IMG/VR virus record: IMGVR_UViG_3300045988_000121
Location: 1 to 5,851 of that record
DNA: 5,851 bases
Source: a virus
Strand: one strand, 5' to 3'
Translations under genes and position numbers: made by a program
Shown here: positions 1 through 5,851 of the stretch, piece after piece
How the letters are laid out: every line of letters starts with the position of its first letter
Position numbering within the stretch: position 1 is the first letter of the stretch
The notes under the pieces: generated by a model
Databases searched by the model: none
The model's input: the letters and a program-made list of their open reading frames with translations, nothing else
What the model was told of the DNA's origin: nothing

Positions 1-36
1 TTCCAGAAATGCACGCAAGCCGAACACGATTCAATC
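1..36. repeat. Terminal direct repeat (left copy), identical to 5816-5851. It marks a circular genome that was linearised with a 36-nt overlap.
   Basis: I compared ttccagaaatgcacgcaagccgaacacgattcaatc at 1-36 with 5816-5851 base by base and found them identical. The reading frame of the capsid ORF is continuous across the junction. Confidence 0.95.
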
Positions 37-1646
37 GAGACCAGACGATTCTAACCACGTTCGATGCAGGCAAACTCATTCCATTCTATGTGGACGAAGT
101 CCTGCCGGGTGACACATTCAGCGTGGACACAGCGGCCATTATCCGCATGACAACGCCGAAATATCCGGTAATGGACGATGCATTCATTGATTTTTACTAT
201 TTCTTCTGTCCAAACCGAATTCTATGGGACGATTTCAAGTACTTCATGGGAGAAGTAGAAAGTACACCATGGATGCCCACAAAAACGTACAAAGTACCAC
301 AACTCTTACTAAAAAATAAAGATAAATTTATAATCCCATACGAGAAAAGCATACTCGACTATATGGGAGTGCCAACAAAAAGCATTAAAACGCCAGAAAC
401 GGAAGCAAGCATCAACGCACTACCTATCAGAGCATATGTAAAAATCTGGAACGAATTCTTCAGAGATGAAAACGTAGACAATGCGGCGACAATTATAACA
501 ACAAGTGAAGATGTACAATACAAAGACGGGTCAGATGAAAGCATACCGTTAGAACAAGTAATCAAAGAAGCATACAAAGGAGGAAGATGCCTACCAGTAA
601 ACAAATTCCACGACTACTTCACATCCTGTCTCCCATACCCTCAGCGTGGGCCAGATGTGACAATCCCAATGAGTGGTCTATATCCAGTAGAACTAAGAGA
701 TTTGGCAGGGCATAAACCGCAAGGCACAATTTTCATGAACGGAACTGGAACAATGGCAACAGGCACAATCGACGGCGGCGGCGGCGGTGCGGCAACGATA
801 ACAGGTGCAACAAAGTCAGGTGGAAACACAGCAATCCAGGGAAATTTATACGTAAATCTTGCAGGAGACTTAACCGCAACAGGTGCACAAGCAACAATCA
901 ACCAGCTGAGACAGGCTATCAGCGTGCAGCAGTACTATGAAGCACTGGCACGTGGAGGCAGTCGATACCGCGAACAAGTACACGCACTGTGGGATGTAAC
1001 TATCAGCGACAAAACCGTACAGATTCCAGAATATCTGGGAGGAGGACGCTATCACGTCAACATCAATCAAATCATCCAGACAAGCGGACAGCAGACAAAC
1101 ACCGATACGCCAATTGGCGAAACAGGCGCAATGTCTGTAACACCTATCAATGAAAGCTCCTTTACAAAGAGCTTTGAAGAGCACGGATTTGTAATCGGTG
1201 TATGTTGTGTAAGACATAACAGAAGTTATCAGCAGGGACTTGAACGTTTTTGGAGCAGAAAAGACAGGCTGGATTACTATGTACCACAGTTTGCAAACAT
1301 CGGTGAACAGCCTGTAAAAAAGAAAGAAATCATGTTAACCGGCGAAGCAAGCGATGAAGAAACATTCGGATATCAAGAAGCATGGGCGGACTACCGCATG
1401 AAACCGAACCGCGTATCTGGATTAATGCGAAGCAATGCCACCGGCACACTTGACTTCTGGCATTATGCAGACAACTACAAAACCGTACCAACACTTTCAC
1501 AGGAATGGATGTCAGAAGGCAAAAAGGAGATTGCACGGACTTTGATTGTGCAGAATGAACCACAGTTCTTCGGCGCAATCAGAGTAGCAAACAAAACAAC
1601 AAGACGAATGCCGCTTTACAGCGTGCCGGGTCTGTATAAACTGTAA
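1..1646 (+). CDS. VP1: Major capsid protein VP1 (phiX174 F homologue). It is 5'-truncated by the linearisation; the true start is ATG 5782, giving about 559 aa.
   Basis: The frame is open from the window edge. The ORF track starts at ATG 9, but the same frame continues from 5782 (MNRNNERHFLQVPE then MHASRTRFNRDQ...). Gokushovirus capsid hallmarks are present: TTFDAGKLIPFYVDEVLPGDTF near the N-terminus and INQLRQA...ALARGGSRYREQVHALWDV mid-protein. The length is typical for VP1. Confidence 0.95.
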   Translation, partial: PEMHASRTRFNRDQTILTTFDAGKLIPFYVDEVLPGDTFSVDTAAIIRMTTPKYPVMDDAFIDFYYFFCPNRILWDDFKYFMGEVESTPWMPTKTYKVPQLLLKNKDKFIIPYEKSILDYMGVPTKSIKTPETEASINALPIRAYVKIWNEFFRDENVDNAATIITTSEDVQYKDGSDESIPLEQVIKEAYKGGRCLPVNKFHDYFTSCLPYPQRGPDVTIPMSGLYPVELRDLAGHKPQGTIFMNGTGTMATGTIDGGGGGAATITGATKSGGNTAIQGNLYVNLAGDLTATGAQATINQLRQAISVQQYYEALARGGSRYREQVHALWDVTISDKTVQIPEYLGGGRYHVNINQIIQTSGQQTNTDTPIGETGAMSVTPINESSFTKSFEEHGFVIGVCCVRHNRSYQQGLERFWSRKDRLDYYVPQFANIGEQPVKKKEIMLTGEASDEETFGYQEAWADYRMKPNRVSGLMRSNATGTLDFWHYADNYKTVPTLSQEWMSEGKKEIARTLIVQNEPQFFGAIRVANKTTRRMPLYSVPGLYKL

Positions 1647-1656
1647 GAAAGGAGGA

Positions 1657-1684
1657 AGCCCGGAGAAATCCGGGCTATTTTAAA
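1657..1684 (+). terminator. GC-rich hairpin with a GNRA loop plus a T-tract between VP1 and VP2. It is a candidate leaky intrinsic terminator and an SD-to-start bridging hairpin.
   Basis: The stem AGCCCGGA (1657-1664) pairs with TCCGGGCT (1669-1676). The loop is GAAA, followed by ATTTTAAAA and then ATG 1685. The only SD (AAGGAGGA, 1649-1656) lies immediately 5' of the stem. Confidence 0.55.
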
Positions 1685-2572
1685 ATGTCACTATTAGGAG
1701 CACTAGGAACAATCGGAAGCATAGCAGGAACAGTTGGCACAGTAGCAAACGCAGTAGGACAAATTGGAAACGCATTCGGTGCATGGGGACAAGTAGGACA
1801 AAGCCAAAGCCAAGGCGGAAGCACACAAAGCGGCGGCGGACAAAGCCAAAGCGGCAGCAAGTCCGGGACAAACGTAGACCAAGTAGAAAAGTGGTTGCAA
1901 GGAGCATACGGATACCAGAACAACGAAGGAGTGAAACAAGGCCAATTCAACCAGAGATCAATGCTACAGCAGATGGGCTATAACACACTGGGGGCGATCA
2001 TGCAGGGTGTCTATAACCACATCGAAAACCAGACTGCAATGAATTTTAACAGCACAGAAGCACTTGCAAACCGTGAATGGCAAGAAAGAATGTCAAATAC
2101 AGCTTATCAGAGAGCAGTAAAAGACATGAGAGAAGCAGGGTTAAACCCGATTCTAGCATTCCAGAACGGCGGTGCAAGTACGCCCGGTGGAAGCACAGCA
2201 ACAATCTCAGGTGCAAGCATGGGTGCACCGTCCTCAAGTGCGTTAGGAGTAAGTAGAGCATCCGGGTTTGTGCCAAACGCATACGAAAGTGAAAGCTGGT
2301 CACAAAGCGACTGGTACAACGCCGCGCAAAGCTGGAATCAGATGCTTAGCAGTACAGGCATGACACCACTAGGATTGCAGAAAACGCTATCAGAAATCGG
2401 AGAAGGTACAGGAAACTTAATCGACAAAACCGTTGGAGCAGGAAGAAAAGCCGCAGAAAGAGGAAAAACAAATGTAAACAAAGCAATAGAAAACGTAAGA
2501 AATGGGCATGGAATCGACAACATCACAGGCAATAGAAATAGAGCCGGTGGTGGAGCAGGAAGGAACAAATAA
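1685..2572 (+). CDS. VP2: Minor capsid / DNA pilot protein VP2 (295 aa)
   Basis: It sits immediately after VP1. It has a hydrophobic Gly/Ala-rich N-terminus (MSLLGALGTIGSIAGTVGTVANAVGQIG), a Q/S/G low-complexity linker, and the conserved gokushovirus VP2 core REWQERMSNTAYQRAVKDMREAGLNPILAF. No alternative in-frame start exists between the upstream stop (1637-1639) and 1685. Confidence 0.9.
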   Translation: MSLLGALGTIGSIAGTVGTVANAVGQIGNAFGAWGQVGQSQSQGGSTQSGGGQSQSGSKSGTNVDQVEKWLQGAYGYQNNEGVKQGQFNQRSMLQQMGYNTLGAIMQGVYNHIENQTAMNFNSTEALANREWQERMSNTAYQRAVKDMREAGLNPILAFQNGGASTPGGSTATISGASMGAPSSSALGVSRASGFVPNAYESESWSQSDWYNAAQSWNQMLSSTGMTPLGLQKTLSEIGEGTGNLIDKTVGAGRKAAERGKTNVNKAIENVRNGHGIDNITGNRNRAGGGAGRNK

Positions 2573-2575
2573 AAA

Positions 2576-3598
2576 ATGAGCTGTTATAAACCGTTAATTC
2601 GGATATACAGCCCAGAAAACAGAAAAATCAGCGGGCAAGTGTATACGCTTGCCCGCTTTTCTGAAAGAATGGGCAAAAAAGTTAAATATGAAGATTTGAT
2701 GTACAATCCAAAAGTAATGCTGATACCATGCGGGCAATGCATCGGATGTAGAATAAGGCAGCGCGAGGACTGGACAACAAGAATAGAACTGGAAGCACGA
2801 GAATATCCAAAAGAACAAGTCTGGTTCATTACACTAACTTATGATGACGACCATGTACCGGGCATGATAGTAAAAACCGGTGAAATCATGCGCAAAGTGC
2901 AATACGTCTGGAAGCCGGGAGAGAAAGCGCCAGAGAGCGTACAAACGCTAATGTATCCAGACATTCAAAAATTTTTAAAACGTCTCAGGAAAGCTTACAG
3001 GGGCAAATTACGCTATTTCTGTGCTGGAGAGTACGGAGAACAAACAGCAAGACCACACTATCACATGATTTTGTACGGATGGGAGCCAACAGACCTGAAA
3101 CACCTGTATAAAATCCAACACAACGGATACTTTACAAGTGAATGGCTGTGCAAGCTGTGGGGAATGGGTCAAATACAAATAGCGCAAGCAGTACCCGAAA
3201 CTTACAGATATGTTGCAGGATACGTAACAAAAAAAATGTATGAAATAGACGGTAAAAAAGCAAACGCATACTATGAACTAGGGCAACAAAAACCATTTGC
3301 ATGTATGTCACTTAAGCCGGGACTAGGCGATGCTTACTATCAAGAACACAAAGAAGAAATCTGGAGGCAAGGATACATCCAATGCACAAACGGAAAGAAG
3401 GCGCAAATTCCGCGATATTATGAAAAAATGATGGAAACAGAAAATCCTGAAAGGCTTTGGAGAATCAAAAGAAACAGACAAGCCGCAGCAATTGCAGAAA
3501 ACCGGCTAAAGTATGAAAATGCAGACTTTGAAACAAATCTTAAAACCAAAGAAAGAGTTGTTAAAAAATCCGTAAAGCTCAAAAAAGGTGGACTTTAA
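2576..3598 (+). CDS. VP4: Replication initiation protein VP4 (HUH rolling-circle endonuclease, phiX174 A homologue, 340 aa)
   Basis: Motifs occur in the canonical order: CGQCIGCR, FITLTYDD (motif 1, nt 2825-2842), RPHYHMILYG (HUH motif, HYH at nt 3056-3064), and YRYVAGYVTKK with two Tyr spaced Y-x3-Y (nt 3209-3223), as in the phiX174 A catalytic tyrosines. Confidence 0.95.
   Translation: MSCYKPLIRIYSPENRKISGQVYTLARFSERMGKKVKYEDLMYNPKVMLIPCGQCIGCRIRQREDWTTRIELEAREYPKEQVWFITLTYDDDHVPGMIVKTGEIMRKVQYVWKPGEKAPESVQTLMYPDIQKFLKRLRKAYRGKLRYFCAGEYGEQTARPHYHMILYGWEPTDLKHLYKIQHNGYFTSEWLCKLWGMGQIQIAQAVPETYRYVAGYVTKKMYEIDGKKANAYYELGQQKPFACMSLKPGLGDAYYQEHKEEIWRQGYIQCTNGKKAQIPRYYEKMMETENPERLWRIKRNRQAAAIAENRLKYENADFETNLKTKERVVKKSVKLKKGGL
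2630..2661 (+). terminator. Perfect 10-bp hairpin plus T-tract inside the 5' end of VP4, 58 nt after the VP2 stop. It is a candidate leaky terminator or attenuator.
   Basis: AGCGGGCAAG (2630-2639) pairs with CTTGCCCGCT (2648-2657). The 8-nt loop is TGTATACG, followed by TTTC. The element encodes ISGQVYTLARFS of VP4. Confidence 0.4.
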
Positions 3599-3616
3599 AA
3601 GTTTTCGGTGTCACCT

Positions 3617-3653
3617 AGCCCAGTACCTATCAAGTAAGGTACTGGGCTTATTT
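3617..3653 (+). terminator. Rho-independent-type terminator hairpin after VP4
   Basis: A 12-bp perfect stem, AGCCCAGTACCT (3617-3628) with AGGTACTGGGCT (3637-3648), has the loop ATCAAGTA and is followed by TATTT. It starts 19 nt after the VP4 stop codon. Confidence 0.65.
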
Positions 3654-3697
3654 GCGCGCGCACGCGCGCGCGTAGACGCACGCACATGCACGCGCAT
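3653..3697. repeat. Two 22-nt perfectly alternating pyrimidine/purine (CG/CA) tracts. The region is Z-DNA-prone and hairpin-prone.
   Basis: 3653-3674 (TGCGCGCGCACGCGCGCGCGTA) and 3676-3697 (ACGCACGCACATGCACGCGCAT) each alternate Y/R without interruption and are separated by the single base G3675. Palindromes lie inside: TGCGCGCGCA (3653-3662) and ACGCGCGCGCGT (3662-3673). TGCGCG (3653-3658) is complementary to CGCGCA (3691-3696). Confidence 0.85.
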
Positions 3698-3736
3698 TTA
3701 TTATATTAACTTGTTGTAGACGTAGTAGTAGAGCAA

Positions 3737-3900
3737 GTGGAAAAGTTGAAAGTGATAAAAATTACTCGTTATCACGTGAGAAACAGGAAAAATTCTCAGT
3801 TAAAAATCTTGTTAAAAACTTGTTAAATTGTTGAAACACTCTATTGTGCTAAAGTTTAACAATGTTAAAATGTTGAAAACTATGTGGAAAAAGTTGAAAA
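3737..3900. repeat. Iteron-like array of GTT(G/A)AAA motifs, bracketed by a 16/17-nt direct repeat, in an AT-rich noncoding region
   Basis: GTGGAAAAGTTGAAA (3737-3751) matches GTGGAAAAAGTTGAAA (3884-3899). GTT(G/A)AA(A/T) starts at 3745, 3799, 3811, 3822, 3830, 3864, 3872 and 3893. One inverted pair, TTTAAC-AAT-GTTAAA, lies at 3855-3869. Tandem CTTGTTAAAAA / CTTGTTAAATT occurs at 3808-3829 with an 11-nt period. Confidence 0.7.
3752..3775. repeat. 7-bp inverted repeat GTGATAA-N10-TTATCAC, a candidate protein-binding site or ssDNA hairpin
   Basis: GTGATAA (3752-3758) is the reverse complement of TTATCAC (3769-3775). It is followed by the palindrome CACGTG (3773-3778). Confidence 0.5.
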
Positions 3901-3912
3901 ATCCAAAAAAGA

Positions 3913-3946
3913 TTGACTTTTTTCCAAAAATATAATAAAGTATAAT
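3913..3946 (+). promoter_or_regulatory. Sigma70-type promoter-like region upstream of the accessory gene block
   Basis: TTGACT lies at 3913-3918. Two perfect TATAAT boxes lie at 3931-3936 and 3941-3946, but their spacers are 12 and 22 nt, which is non-canonical. At the canonical 17-nt spacing the -10 would be TAAAGT (3936-3941, 4/6 match). The A-tract array upstream could act as an UP element. Confidence 0.4.
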
Positions 3947-3968
3947 CACAGAAAGGAAGGTGCTAAAA

Positions 3969-4151
3969 ATGAAACACAACTACGAACTAAAAGCATTAAA
4001 AGCCAACAAAGCAGTGGAAACAGTACTAAGAATAAACGCGGAACCCAAAGACGCAAAACGAAAAGCAAAGAGTTACACAAACAAACATGAAGGAATCTAC
4101 AAACTATACAAAGTTGAAGAAGTGGAAATATATTTCGCTGAAAAAGAATAA
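3969..4151 (+). CDS. Hypothetical small basic protein (60 aa), first gene of the accessory block
   Basis: ATG 3969 is preceded by SD GAAAGGAAGG (3951-3960, 8-nt spacing). The track's earlier start at 3960 lies inside the SD. I recognise no motif. The protein is Lys-rich and soluble-looking. Confidence 0.5.
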   Translation: MKHNYELKALKANKAVETVLRINAEPKDAKRKAKSYTNKHEGIYKLYKVEEVEIYFAEKE

Positions 4152-4284
4152 AAGCACCTACGGTGGACCTACCGAAGTTTCAAAAGTTGCTACGCAACCC
4201 TTGAAAATTCGGCAGGTGTATGATACACTAAGACAAAGAGGCGGCGAACCTCAGAACCTTGAAAAAAAAATAGGAGAAGAAGTC

Positions 4285-4674
4285 ATGATTGTATCATACA
4301 TTGCAGAAAAAGAAGGAAACGTAGAAGTTAAAAGATATTTCCGGGTAAAAGAGTTTGCATGTAAAGATGGAACGCCGGTCGTCTTTATAGACGACCACCT
4401 AGTAACAATTCTGTCAATCCTAAGGACCAAAATCGGAAGGCCGGTTATCATCAACAGCGGATACAGAACGCCGGAGCACAACAAGCGAGTAGGCGGCGCA
4501 AAGTACAGCTACCACATGCGCGGCATGGCGGCAGATATCAAAGTCGAAGGAATGAAAGCAAAAGAGCTGGCAAAAAAACTCGACGAGATAGTACCGAATG
4601 AATGCGGCATCATCGTATATAACAACTGGGTGCACTTTGATGTTCGCCACAGCAAATACAGAAAGGGGGTGTAA
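4285..4674 (+). CDS. Zinc D,D- or L,D-peptidase of the LAS / Peptidase M15 (M15A, YcbK-like) fold. It is a putative peptidoglycan hydrolase (endolysin-like), 129 aa.
   Basis: The family signature is present: SGYRTPEHNKRVGGAKYSYHMRGMAADI (SGYR...N...S-x-H-x2-G-x-A-x-D) plus WVHFDV. This gives zinc ligands H77, D84 and H117 in H-x6-D ... H-x-D geometry. I prefer ATG 4285, which has SD AGGAG (4272-4276), over the track's ATG 4087. That earlier start has no SD and overlaps the preceding ORF. Confidence 0.85.
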   Translation: MIVSYIAEKEGNVEVKRYFRVKEFACKDGTPVVFIDDHLVTILSILRTKIGRPVIINSGYRTPEHNKRVGGAKYSYHMRGMAADIKVEGMKAKELAKKLDEIVPNECGIIVYNNWVHFDVRHSKYRKGV

Positions 4675-4678
4675 ACAA

Positions 4679-4795
4679 ATGGCTCTTATCAGTATCAAAG
4701 ACGTCAAGCAGGCTATCAAGATTATGATGCAGATTCTGGAAAAGCTGGACGAGATTTATCACGCCCTGCACGACCAACCGAACGAAAAGGAGTAA
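4679..4795 (+). CDS. Hypothetical 38-aa amphipathic helical peptide, tightly coupled to the peptidase gene
   Basis: ATG 4679 lies 4 nt after the peptidase stop, with SD GGGGGT (4665-4670). The sequence is MALISIKDVKQAIKIMMQILEKLDEIYHALHDQPNEKE. The track's longer start at 4598 lies inside the peptidase gene and has no SD. Confidence 0.45.
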   Translation: MALISIKDVKQAIKIMMQILEKLDEIYHALHDQPNEKE

Positions 4796-4801
4796 ACGAA
4801 A

Positions 4802-5029
4802 ATGATTGCAAAGTCATGGAACATCAGAGACCAGACTGAAAAAGACTTAACAGAACTGCTGAAAAAAAAATACGCTGAAATCGAGAGCGATTACAAGCTT
4901 CTCCGAAAAATAAGCAACGTGGAAACCGCAAAAAAAATGATAGACGAAATCTGGCAATGCAAAAGCTTTGCCAACGCCATCGAACTTGAACTAATCAGAA
5001 GGGGGTACTACAATGGCACGGCATCGTAA
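4802..5029 (+). CDS. Hypothetical 75-aa helical protein
   Basis: ATG 4802 has SD AAGGAG (4787-4792, 9-nt spacing). The protein is charged and helical-looking, and I recognise no motif. Confidence 0.5.
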   Translation: MIAKSWNIRDQTEKDLTELLKKKYAEIESDYKLLRKISNVETAKKMIDEIWQCKSFANAIELELIRRGYYNGTAS

Positions 5030-5135
5030 AGTCATGCGCGGTGCAAAAGACAAGCGCATGTTTAACGTAACGGCGCGAAAAACCAAAAGCATCAACCTGA
5101 GCCAGAAACCAATGCGCGGCGGTATTCGGCTCTAA
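5013..5135 (+). CDS. Small arginine/lysine-rich DNA-binding protein (gokushovirus ORF8-like, functional analogue of phiX174 J), 40 aa
   Basis: This ORF is not in the track because it is too short. ATG 5013 has SD GAAGGGGGT (4998-5006). The translation is MARHRKVMRGAKDKRMFNVTARKTKSINLSQKPMRGGIRL. The MARxR start and the C-terminal PMRGGIRL match the pattern I recall for Chlamydia-phage-type ORF8 peptides (...MRGGIRF). It overlaps the 3' end of the 75-aa ORF by 17 nt. Confidence 0.75.
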   Translation: MARHRKVMRGAKDKRMFNVTARKTKSINLSQKPMRGGIRL

Positions 5136-5152
5136 GAGAAAGGAGAAAAACA

Positions 5153-5392
5153 ATGGAACATCTGTACTATGGCATCTGGGATAACGTAGCAAAATGCTAC
5201 GCATGGGTCGGTGAAAACAAAAACGACAACACTTTCCAGCGAATGTGCAACATCATGGAAAAAGATAAAAGCACGTTCATCGGGCAGTCCCCAACCGATT
5301 ACGTGGGTCACAGGCTGGCAAAGTTTGAAGACGAAACCGGTACGTTCGAGAACGACAAAGAAAAAGTCTGGGAGGGCAAGCCACATGAATAA
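5153..5392 (+). CDS. VP5: Nonstructural protein VP5 (gokushovirus ORF5-like, 79 aa)
   Basis: SD AAGGAG (5140-5145) lies upstream. The pattern YGIWDNVAKCY...NDNTFQR...DYVGHRLAKFEDETGTFEN fits the VP5 family consensus as I recall it (F/Y-x-I/V-x-D-x-K/V-A ... R-x-F ... L-x-x-G/K-F-D/E-D-x-T-G). Its position just upstream of VP3 is typical. Confidence 0.65.
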   Translation: MEHLYYGIWDNVAKCYAWVGENKNDNTFQRMCNIMEKDKSTFIGQSPTDYVGHRLAKFEDETGTFENDKEKVWEGKPHE

Positions 5393-5795
5393 AAGGTATG
5401 AAGAAGGGCGAGAGCCCTTCTTTTCTGATTCAGGCGAAACGCAGCGTAAACAGTACGTATGGGCAAAAGACGAAGACGGGAAAGAATACCTGCAGGAAAC
5501 AGAAAGCATAGACATTCAGGCAGAAATTGAAAGCTATGCAGATGAGTGCGATATTAAAAACATCGTCCGTAAAGCATCGTTTGACCCACAGTTTATGCAG
5601 AGCCTTTCACAGGGAGCGCTGGACGGCACAGAAGTAGATATTACAGAATGGCCACAGAACATTCACGAATATCACAAAATGGTAGCAACAGCACAGGCAA
5701 ACGCACTGACACTGCAGAAAATGCAGGAAGAAGCGCCGAAGGAAGCACCGAAGGAAGCACCGAAGGAAGGAGACATGAAGAATGAACAGAAATAA
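5385..5795 (+). CDS. VP3: Internal scaffolding protein VP3 (136 aa)
   Basis: I prefer ATG 5385, which has SD GGAGG (5371-5375) and an ATGAATAA overlap with the VP5 stop. The track's start at 5211 lies inside VP5. ADECDIKNIVRK and the downstream D-x-T-E-W-P ... H-x-x-V-A-T-A-Q resemble the conserved gokushovirus VP3 core (..ECDINxIMKK.. / ..GD......A..). Confidence 0.8.
   Translation: MNKRYEEGREPFFSDSGETQRKQYVWAKDEDGKEYLQETESIDIQAEIESYADECDIKNIVRKASFDPQFMQSLSQGALDGTEVDITEWPQNIHEYHKMVATAQANALTLQKMQEEAPKEAPKEAPKEGDMKNEQK
5400..5430 (+). terminator. Hairpin with a GNRA loop plus T-rich tail, 9 nt after the VP5 stop and inside the first 40 nt of VP3. It is a candidate leaky terminator.
   Basis: AAGAAGGGC (5401-5409) pairs with GCCCTTCTT (5414-5422). 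The loop is GAGA, followed by TTCTGATT. A G5400-U5423 wobble could extend the stem. Confidence 0.45.
5729..5768 (+). repeat. In-frame 12-nt tandem repeat (3.3 copies) encoding (EAPK)3 at the VP3 C-terminus
   Basis: The copies are GAAGCGCCGAAG, GAAGCACCGAAG and GAAGCACCGAAG, then GAAG. Each unit junction creates a GAAGGAAG SD-like string upstream of the VP1 start. Confidence 0.9.
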
Positions 5796-5851
5796 CGAAC
5801 GGCACTTTCTGCAGGTTCCAGAAATGCACGCAAGCCGAACACGATTCAATC
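5782..5851 (+). CDS. VP1: 5' end of major capsid protein VP1, which continues at position 1 after the circular junction. 5816-5851 duplicates 1-36.
   Basis: ATG 5782 has SD AAGGAG (5767-5772, 9-nt spacing). It overlaps the VP3 3' end by 14 nt. The translation MNRNNERHFLQVPEMHASRTRFN is in frame with the ORF at 9..1646, and the H-F-x-Q-V-P motif is typical of the gokushovirus VP1 N-terminus. Confidence 0.85.
   Translation, partial: MNRNNERHFLQVPEMHASRTRFN
5816..5851. repeat. Terminal direct repeat (right copy), identical to 1-36
   Basis: Exact 36/36 identity with the window start. Confidence 0.95.

Follow-up and report, generated by a model that had tools for sequence, protein, structure and literature searches.

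Introduction

The closest described counterparts of the DNA element studied here are single-strand origins (sso) and single-strand initiation sites (ssi). Those compared were ssoA, ssoU, ssoT and ssoW of the pT181/pMV158-type plasmids, the n'/PriA site of phiX174, the primase origin of G4, and hairpins B and C of the Ff phages. Single-strand origins are strand-specific. The ssoA type has the RSB motif and, in its loop, the CS-6 motif TAGCGT, and the G4 type has a CTG start for primase. The element occupies positions 3653-3697 of the IMG/VR virus record IMGVR_UViG_3300045988_000121, a gokushovirus-type microvirus. The whole stretch that was analysed, positions 1 to 5,851 of that record and 5,851 nucleotides (nt) long, is called the window. 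Gokushoviruses rank with the most common phages in the mammalian gut, and we know of no mapping of either gokushovirus replication origin.

The biology of sso and ssi sites in rolling-circle replicons has been summarised (PMC5714925). Judged by that summary and by general knowledge, the element is like these sites in being an imperfect non-coding palindrome of a rolling-circle single-stranded DNA (ssDNA) replicon, in its apparently fixed orientation, in being modular, exchangeable and dispensable, and in belonging to a hairpin cluster. Extensive imperfect secondary structure in a non-coding region, a trait of sso and ssi sites, was found. Unlike them, the element has no sequence similarity to the known sites, no CS-6/RSB-type motif, a variable loop, strict purine/pyrimidine alternation and mismatches on the presumed packaged strand, and at 45 nt it is shorter than the typical sso of 130-200 nt. 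The described sso recognition motifs were absent from the element, in which the loop varies; TAGCGC spans loop and arm in some relatives and is not conserved. The element thus resembles single-strand origins in behaviour and lacks their motifs, and we have not classed it as one of them.

A second comparison is with the hairpins of HUH origins, namely IR-II of pT181, the geminivirus/circovirus stem-loop and the relaxase inverted repeat 5' of nic. In relaxase and IS608-type sites the hairpin lies just 5' of the cleavage site. The element is like these in placing a G+C-rich inverted repeat beside an A+T-rich conserved sequence in a genome with an HUH Rep initiator, but its loop is unconserved, its spacing and the orientation of the neighbouring motif vary, and it can be absent. 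A fixed relation of hairpin to motif was not found in 116 loci, nor was there a conserved loop to hold a nick site. A third comparison is with the (CG)n/(CA)n plasmid inserts that form Z-DNA. The element shares with them alternating runs of 20-28 base pairs (bp), CG with CA steps, and a transition at a superhelical density (sigma) of about -0.04, calculated with approximate parameters. Unlike the inserts, it occurs naturally and is conserved, and it is a quasi-palindrome of two parts in which the non-alternating centre is obligatory and the phase between the halves is not conserved; Z-DNA formation is here a prediction.

Within the Microviridae, intergenic hairpins that are conserved and show compensatory changes have been put forward as the minus-strand origins of other clades (PMC9865509). 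The hairpins of roodoodoo- and reekeekee-microviruses are like the element in their intergenic position in Microviridae, their compensatory substitutions and their proposed minus-strand role (PMC9865509). They differ in clade, in sequence and in their place between Cap and Rep, and neither alternation nor a G+C island is reported for them (PMC9865509). A full-text literature search found no description of an alternating G+C hairpin in Microviridae, and a preliminary description of the window did not count such a tract among the known features of microvirus genomes.

The element exists and is both conserved and constrained: its alternation, high G+C content, short loop and palindromic register have all been retained. 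Sequence comparison suggests a functional, strand-oriented, modular and dispensable non-coding element, part of a modular cluster of G+C-rich hairpins that edges the main non-coding region in a large clade of gut gokushoviruses. We tentatively read it as a hairpin signal for complementary-strand synthesis, of the sso/ssi kind. Of the readings considered, this one accounts for the largest share of the findings, and we hold it to be possible rather than probable. Both the priming function and the strand that would bear the functional hairpin are what we infer.

Structure of the element

Positions 3653-3674 read TGCGCGCGCACGCGCGCGCGTA and positions 3676-3697 read ACGCACGCACATGCACGCGCAT, each an unbroken alternation of pyrimidines and purines over 22 nt. 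They are the only alternations of at least 12 nt in the window. In 2000 shuffles of the genome the longest alternating run had a mean of 12.3 nt and was at most 21 nt. The G+C content of the 45 nt is 73%, compared with 43.6% for the genome, in which the coding strand has 38% A and 18% T. The preliminary description of two alternating G+C-rich tracts in an A-rich genome was therefore borne out, as was its mention of the nested palindromes TGCGCGCGCA and ACGCGCGCGCGT, both of which were found in the element. Its statement that G3675 shifts the phase between the tracts was wrong. Pyrimidines fall on odd and purines on even coordinates in both tracts, and 44/45 positions share one phase, with G3675 the sole exception.

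The two tracts are the arms of a single 20-pair quasi-palindrome, in which 3653-3672 pairs with 3677-3696 around the loop TAGA:

3653-3672, no strand assigned: 5' arm, within the first alternating tract (which runs to 3674); pairs with 3677-3696
3673-3676, no strand assigned: loop TAGA; contains G3675, the one base that breaks a 45-nt in-phase alternation
3677-3696, no strand assigned: 3' arm, within the second alternating tract (3676-3697)

On the coding strand the stem has 16 Watson-Crick pairs and four C.A mismatches among its 20 pairs. On the complementary strand the same four positions are G.T wobbles, giving a 20-pair hairpin without interruption. DNA folding of the element alone gave -15.8 kcal/mol for the coding strand and -23.6 kcal/mol for the complement. 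A very stable all-GC hairpin had been proposed for the packaged strand. The symmetry behind that proposal is present; the perfect all-GC stem is not, as four of 20 pairs are A.C and the fold is the weaker of the two. When 3600-3720 (121 nt) was folded as ssDNA, both strands did better than shuffles (z = -4.7 for the coding strand, -8.0 for the complement).

Folding of RNA gave -27.1 kcal/mol (z = -1.9) in the coding sense and -41.1 kcal/mol (z = -4.0) for the complement. The coding-sense value, together with a coding-strand hairpin followed by TTTATTATATT, is what might be expected of a second intrinsic terminator or another RNA-level element at the 3' end of the rep mRNA. The coding-sense fold is, however, not significantly better than those of shuffles, a proper terminator hairpin already lies 5 nt upstream of the element, and a terminator scan had no match at the element. 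In most relatives the tails are not U-rich (e.g. GCTCTTCAGCGC and ATATAATATTAAC), and the mismatches are A.C, not the G.U that a coding-sense RNA stem would give. We regard this explanation as very improbable.

Several other descriptions of the element were rejected. In a direct-repeat register the two tracts of the window match at best at 15/21 positions and at 2/8 informative positions. Near-perfect repeats with a 24-nt period were found in one subclade only (L001, L019, L038, L078, L022, L055, L058 and L062; L numbers designate fetched loci). A tandem direct repeat or iteron pair was rejected, as the repeat relation is limited to that subclade and does not extend to the window. An Rfam search of 3550-4000 on both strands returned no family, only sub-threshold low-complexity microRNA hairpins (mir-297, mir-466). 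A role in restriction-site avoidance or as a decoy was rejected, since the observed/expected CpG ratio outside the tract is 0.98 and gives no sign of avoidance.

Presence among relatives

With Rep as the query, 80 IMG/VR loci with 85-97% amino-acid identity were obtained. Conservation was counted in the 71 loci in which Rep was at least 85% identical and at least 300 nt of sequence followed the Rep stop codon. A two-tract alternating G+C element was present in 67/71 of these, 48-230 nt past the Rep stop, so that an alternating tract is kept at this location despite sequence drift, a check that had been suggested for it. The remaining four loci have a partial or single tract (L051, L060) or no element (L028, L067). 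The element was also found in L200 and L206, the Rep proteins of which are only ~51% identical to that of the window, and in GenBank relatives, with hosts that include pig, human, monkey and raccoon. The cultured gokushoviruses SpV4, Chp2 and phiMH2K are without it. Among distinct Rep-bearing microvirus loci, 116/166 carry it. Pooling of all fetched loci gave 54 distinct element variants, and counts over these variants are phylogenetically non-independent.

G+C-rich palindromes are prone to amplification and assembly errors, and an artefact of either kind would explain a tract of this sort in a single contig. The same architecture, with lineage-specific transition variants, is seen in ~100 contigs from many metagenomes and in several GenBank studies and hosts. 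With some hundred independent assemblies and GenBank records sharing it, an assembly artefact is excluded, and the chance that we give to an artefact of either kind is negligible.

The element is dispensable, being present or absent among near-identical genomes. L207 is without it though L200 and L206 have it, and the Rep proteins of L206 and L207 are each 92% identical to that of L200. In a sister clade with a Rep of 329 amino acids (aa), ~10/45 genomes have the alternating element, and in the others the VP2 terminator runs directly into the A+T-rich block described below.

Constraints on the element

Arm variation across the 54 variants consists of transitions only, and the sole change in an arm that breaks alternation is in L075. 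At the fourfold sites of Rep in the same genomes 148/462 inferred substitutions were transversions. The arms have A at 29% of purine positions and T at 12% of pyrimidine positions, compared with 75% and 44% at fourfold sites; A and T are each 6-7-fold rarer in the element than at fourfold sites. Element length ranges from 40 to 53 nt, and length, architecture and G+C richness are kept down to ~50% Rep identity. Every variant has a short, non-alternating, A/purine-rich centre, which on the coding strand reads TAGA, TAAA, GAAG, GAAA, GATAG, TAAT or TAG.

The palindromic register is also kept. T lies opposite A in 116/133 cases in the 54 variants, where 38 are expected; the figure was 12-44 when the register was slid by 2, 4 or 6 nt. 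There are 23 pair positions that occur both as G:C and as A:T, often with an A.C intermediate. In a gap-free subset of 16 sequences 8/18 pairs have changed on both sides, compared with 4.1 +/- 1.3 in shuffles (1/500 reached this value) and 1-3 in slid registers. All 54 variants fall short of a perfect palindrome, with one to six A.C mismatches each on the coding strand (mean 3.8). Between the window and L001, with Rep 97% identical and flanks ~97-98% identical, 8/45 element positions differ. All eight are transitions, and one is a compensated change of a T:A to a C:G pair. Alternation and the imperfect palindromic register are the two best-supported constraints.

Other traits are free to vary. 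The two tracts are in phase in 33 variants and out of phase in 21. Tract number varies, L060 having a single tract and L397 three. The direction of the element with respect to the genes does not change, 116/116 elements being A-rich on the coding strand even beside an inverted A+T block; this A-richness follows the genome-wide skew.

The rare structural variants comprise the single tract of L060, the three tracts of L397 and a reversed loop (TCTA) in L004. Arm damage was seen in L051, in which the 5' arm is truncated, and in L075, in which the 3' arm is broken by CCCCGCGG. Loop reversal, unit loss, triplication and arm damage suggest slippage and intrastrand template switching at the palindrome.

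These variants raise the question of whether the element is a hypermutable palindromic GC cluster that propagates itself and does little or nothing for the phage. Such a low-complexity palindrome, derived from (CG)n, would be kept up by slippage, unit duplication and intrastrand template switching and would spread from genome to genome by recombination. It is a transition hot spot, as the eight differences between the window and L001 illustrate. Its copy number varies (L060, L397, and a duplicated cassette in L297), the reversed loop of L004 is a typical outcome of template switching at a hairpin, and in the sister clade the element is sporadic and inserted at differing places relative to the A+T block. 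Template switching at a quasi-palindrome could even yield the facing of T and A without selection. Against this, it is near-universal (67/71) in very small genomes, where useless DNA is normally lost, its G+C content, 40-53-nt length and architecture persist to ~50% Rep identity, and transversions and indels are almost absent despite high turnover. We therefore consider a functionless cluster unlikely.

Supercoiling energetics

The energetics of the duplex were calculated with our own two-state script for a 5.8-kb circle. The results are approximate, as the Z-DNA parameters were assumed, not measured; they are reportedly those of Ho et al. 1986 and Peck and Wang 1983. The transition of the 45 bp from B- to Z-DNA costs ~35 kcal/mol, relaxes ~8.6 turns and has a threshold sigma of ~-0.039. 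Extrusion of a cruciform costs ~40 kcal/mol, with a threshold of ~-0.076; a perfect-palindrome control gave 11.8 kcal/mol and -0.026, and the high cost for the element is due to its mismatches. Cruciform extrusion in the replicative form was rejected, a threshold of ~-0.076 being energetically out of reach. The hairpin therefore implies a single-stranded context, and B-to-Z is the only plausible supercoil-driven transition in the duplex.

Z-DNA in the supercoiled replicative form, as the preliminary description had it, is thus energetically plausible. A CG-rich alternating tract of about 12 bp or more is long enough to flip to Z-DNA, and the element has two such runs of 22 nt. Unconstrained superhelicity in living bacteria is usually quoted as about -0.025 to -0.03. 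With the assumed parameters, the threshold of ~-0.039 is one that purified replicative form reaches, and it is borderline for unconstrained superhelicity in vivo.

On this basis the element may be a duplex non-B element, in which a tract or the whole 45 bp flips to Z-DNA in the supercoiled replicative form and absorbs up to ~8 superhelical turns. Its role would be that of a torsional buffer or boundary at the A+T-rich control block, limiting or timing melting there, or insulating the rep unit from the next. The alternation is the trait most strictly kept, in 54 variants from three Rep clades, despite a neutral rate of one-third transversions, and tracts of 20-28 bp, mostly CG with CA steps, fit both the sequence rule and the calculated threshold. 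The A.C/G.T mismatches raise the threshold of the competing cruciform from -0.026 to ~-0.076, and 111/116 loci have the element at the 5' edge of the A+T-rich block. Other traits are at odds with such a role. Selection for a long Z-tract favours neither the obligatory non-alternating A-rich centre nor tracts that are out of phase in 21/54 variants, and the register-specific facing of T and A is not needed. The threshold is above the usual in vivo superhelicity, so supercoiling driven by transcription would be required, and the element is dispensable in relatives. A literature search found no role for Z-DNA in microvirus biology. We judge a Z-DNA function to be somewhat unlikely.

Strand asymmetry

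Summed across all variants, the coding strand carries 203 A.C mismatches and only 17 of G.T. In an aligned subset, standard pairs make up 74.7% of pair cells on the coding strand and 99.7% on the complement, G.T wobbles included. Much of the latter figure is automatic. Alternation is strict and T is scarce on the coding strand, so that the complement can pair in nearly every in-phase register, where sliding by +2 still left 95.7% and sliding by -2 left 87.5% paired; the perfect antisense hairpin is therefore largely a consequence of composition.

A genome-wide bias accounts for part of the asymmetry. At Rep fourfold sites the per-base frequency of G-to-A changes on the coding strand is 2.7x that of C-to-T. 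With exit rates taken into account, this bias predicts an A.C:G.T ratio of ~3.8:1, compared with the 12:1 observed, so that a threefold excess is left. The excess runs opposite to selection for the stability of a coding-strand hairpin; it is not decisive, as the variants are phylogenetically non-independent.

By family-level knowledge we take the coding strand to be the packaged strand. The asymmetry of the element bears on which strand these uncultured phages package, and the packaged strand may instead be the one opposite in sense to their mRNAs, the element being its complementary-strand origin. This would be a special case of a hairpin signal for complementary-strand synthesis. In favour of this, pairing is near-perfect on the non-coding strand, the 2.7x excess becomes one of C-to-T there, and its fourfold sites are T-rich like those of the coding, packaged strand in SpV4 and Chp2. 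Coding-strand fourfold sites have A 0.56 and T 0.13 in the window, A 0.47 and G 0.07 in phiMH2K, T 0.65 in SpV4 and T 0.50 in Chp2. Fourfold A-richness is compatible with packaging of the non-coding strand and also with host codon preferences. The case for packaging of that strand is weakened by the largely automatic pairing and by the phiX-like motif described below, which is not consistently on the strand of the well-paired hairpin, and we consider this special case distinctly unlikely. An attempt to read the packaged strand from skew against the orientation of the phiX-like motif was uninformative, as fourfold AT skew is the same in the 73 genomes that have a direct motif (0.61) as in the 46 that have an inverted one (0.59).

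A possible signal acting in single-stranded DNA

If the element is a signal for complementary-strand synthesis, it would most likely act while the genome is single-stranded. A hairpin so rich in G+C would stay folded and free of single-strand-binding protein. Host RNA polymerase, primase or a PriA-type primosome could enter there and prime complementary-strand synthesis. Conservation, the palindromic register, fixed orientation, cassette behaviour and folds beyond those of shuffles are counted in support, as are the energetic barrier to a cruciform in duplex DNA and the minus-strand role proposed for hairpins of other microvirus clades (PMC9865509). Cassette behaviour and dispensability point this way because the sso modules of plasmids behave likewise.

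Five findings weigh against it. The strict alternation is the strongest constraint, and a hairpin needs no alternation. The A.C mismatches of all 54 variants lie on the presumed packaged coding strand, where selection for the stability of that hairpin would not be expected to keep them; alternation and these mismatches are what a hairpin signal leaves unexplained. Registers slid by 2 nt still pair at 60-66% of positions on the coding strand, and since any alternating CG-rich tract is self-complementary much of the pairing is a by-product. The element has no sequence likeness to any described sso motif and no Rfam match. Finally, it is missing in L067, L207 and most of the sister clade. Because it is absent from some close relatives and most of the sister clade, it is neither the only nor an essential minus-strand origin.

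As a sharply defined, conserved landmark, the element is a concrete candidate for studies of the conversion of ssDNA to replicative form. It is also a natural case in which hairpin formation, Z-DNA potential and avoidance of a perfect palindrome act on the same 45 bp. Were it only a modular accessory its value would be smaller, as a marker for annotation and for recombination breakpoints.

The neighbouring non-coding region

The element is one of several features that follow the Rep gene in the window:

3617-3648, + strand: terminator-like hairpin after Rep, a 12-bp perfect stem with an 8-nt loop, then TTATTT; seen in folds and as an inverted repeat
3697-3707, no strand assigned: A+T-only spacer TTTATTATATT, from the sequence; relatives have an A+T-rich spacer of variable sequence
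3706-3731, no strand assigned: most conserved non-coding motif, TTAACTTGTTGTAG-NN-GTAGTAGTAG (NN = AC here), outside the element
3732-3912, no strand assigned: A+T-rich block with GTTGAAA/GTGGAAAAG-type repeats, from repeat families; conserved in relatives, orientation variable

The preliminary description placed the tracts right after the rep terminator. The hairpin at 3617-3648 and its TTATTT exist, but a consensus terminator scan left this hairpin uncalled. It is kept in relatives with a compensated transversion between clades (GCCCAG/CTGGGC versus GCCAAG/CTTGGC). A position beside the promoter of an accessory cassette, which had also been claimed, did not hold up, as promoter-like hexamers begin only at 3913, 216 nt downstream of the element.

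No other non-coding sequence of the group is as well conserved as the motif and block, which match 43 GenBank records of gut gokushoviruses. The AACTTG within TTAACTTGTTGTAG-NN-GTAGTAGTAG is, we assume, the same as in the phiX174 origin. The motif lies within 120 nt after the element in 97/116 element-bearing loci. Immediately after GTAGTAGTAG, GTGGAAAAG is kept in relatives. At 3738-3746 and 3883-3891, GTGGAAAAG and TGTGGAAAA read TTTTCCAC(A) on the other strand, which we take to be one mismatch from the DnaA-box consensus TTATCCACA.

Relative to genes and element, the block is direct in 97/116 and inverted in 14/116 element-bearing loci; it is on the minus strand in ~10/43 of the GenBank records. 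Inverted cases include MG945447, MG945388, KT264801, L030, L042, L045, L046 and L304. The inverted block spans 1200-1425 in L203 (MG945447), 1270-1470 in L204 (MG945388) and 3840-4060 in L205 (KT264801). The inverted cases carry at least four element types, at least two of which (type B, ATAG-loop) also occur in relatives with a direct block, and inversion or exchange of the block has therefore been recurrent. If the block holds the Rep nick site, a flip would change the nicked strand. Whichever way the block points, the element is at its 5' edge in 111/116 loci; in L294, L297 and L298, of the sister clade, it comes after the block.

A perfect 11-nt inverted repeat, TTTATTATATT/AATATAATAAA at 3697-3707 and 3929-3939, flanks a 221-nt A+T block in the window, its right arm overlapping TATAAT. 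Inversion of the block by way of flanking inverted repeats was rejected. In 101 relatives the longest flanking repeat is no longer than in the shuffled control (6.6 in both), and the repeat in the window is probably due to chance.

The sister clade has the block in antisense orientation between VP2 and Rep, and in almost all of its genomes the motif is on the opposite strand relative to the genes. Many of these genomes (L087, L257, L261 and ~35 others) have a non-alternating 10-bp hairpin, CCGGCACAAG...CTTGTGCCGG, 24 nt 5' of the TTAACTTGTTGTAG motif and on the strand of the motif. This hairpin occupies the place that the alternating element has in the clade of the window.

The motif raises another possibility, that the element is an accessory of the plus-strand (double-strand) origin, a hairpin bound by the HUH Rep or pausing the fork, beside a nick site in the TTAACTTGTTGTAG motif. 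The element is 3-60 nt 5' of the AACTTG-bearing motif in 97/116 loci, and the CCGGCACAAG...CTTGTGCCGG hairpin of the sister clade is a G+C hairpin 24 nt 5' of the same motif. Neither adjacency nor orientation is conserved, however: the motif block is inverted relative to the element in 14/116 loci and in the element-bearing genomes of the sister clade, and the element is on the other side of the block in L294, L297 and L298. Identical elements accompany Rep proteins that are more than 10% different, and differing elements accompany the 97% identical Rep proteins of the window and L001. The nick would not be in the loop, because loop sequences are unconserved, and the motif is itself only a putative nick site. 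A part in the plus-strand origin is in our view improbable.

Modularity of the region

The element is gained or lost as part of an indel, a cassette of 45 to ~300 nt that often has one to three perfect G/C-run hairpins in addition (e.g. GGGGGTAGGCC...GGCCTACCCCC, or GCGCCCCC...GGGGGC followed by TGCCG), always 5' of the alternating element on the coding strand. Such hairpins were seen 60-250 nt 5' of the element in L104, L182, L121, L200, L206, L258, L263, L294, L297, L298 and L205. In L297 the cassette is partly duplicated, and in the window the alternating element stands alone.

One and the same non-coding module is joined to Rep genes more than 10% different at the protein level, and similarity breaks off where Rep ends. 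There is therefore no co-variation of element and Rep. Comparison with L019, L038 and L078 placed a recombination break in the 3' end of Rep, at 3560-3610 of the window; from the terminator on the module is near-identical in genomes that differ in their Rep 3' ends and in the whole Rep protein (~86% identity, against 97%).

Two further candidates gave no support. A dif/XerCD attachment site at 3689-3716 was rejected, as it matches the E. coli dif consensus by eye at ~15/28 positions and its XerD arm is poor. No antisense promoter was found from which a minus-sense RNA could start at the hairpin; the only antisense match, a weak one of 9 of 12, is ~240 nt away. Gokushoviruses that integrate by XerCD have a 28-bp dif-like motif, and integrated prophage copies are present in bacterial genomes (PMC7062461). 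A Rep scan of 185,579 species genomes found no integrated prophage copy. Its one match was a free 5.8-kb contig binned with a Prevotella metagenome-assembled genome, which is weak evidence of the host.

Genome setting

The window is one unit of a circular 5.8-kb gokushovirus-type microvirus genome, positions 1-36 recurring at 5816-5851, and the IMG/VR record is that of a complete virus contig with direct terminal repeats. The large genes are all on the + strand: VP1 at 9-1646, VP2 at 1685-2572 and VP4/Rep at 2576-3598. A peptidase and the small genes VP5 and VP3 come after these. The Rep gene is the one next to the element:

2576-3598, + strand: VP4/Rep gene, 340 aa, from the open reading frame list and from VP4 annotation over the same stretch in similar GenBank microviruses

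Its stop codon is 54 nt from the alternating element. The nearest GenBank records are uncultured gut Microviridae/Gokushovirinae from pig, human and monkey faeces, at ~77-82% identity.

The 18-mer in large contigs

Many large G+C-rich phage contigs likewise contain the 18-mer CGCGCACGCGCGCACGCG in settings unrelated to this one, and so it is not diagnostic alone. Large contigs bearing it, of 58-72% G+C, are L306, L329, L338, L346, L362, L376 and L398; L314, L377 and L383; and L303, L311, L315 and others. In several of these the 18-mer is central between inverted or iteron-like repeats, e.g. GACGCAGCTGACAC...GTCAGCTGCGTCAGAC and GTGACGGATGTGACGGAT...ATCCGTCAC. Such sites may be origins or telomere-resolution sites with a central alternating tract.

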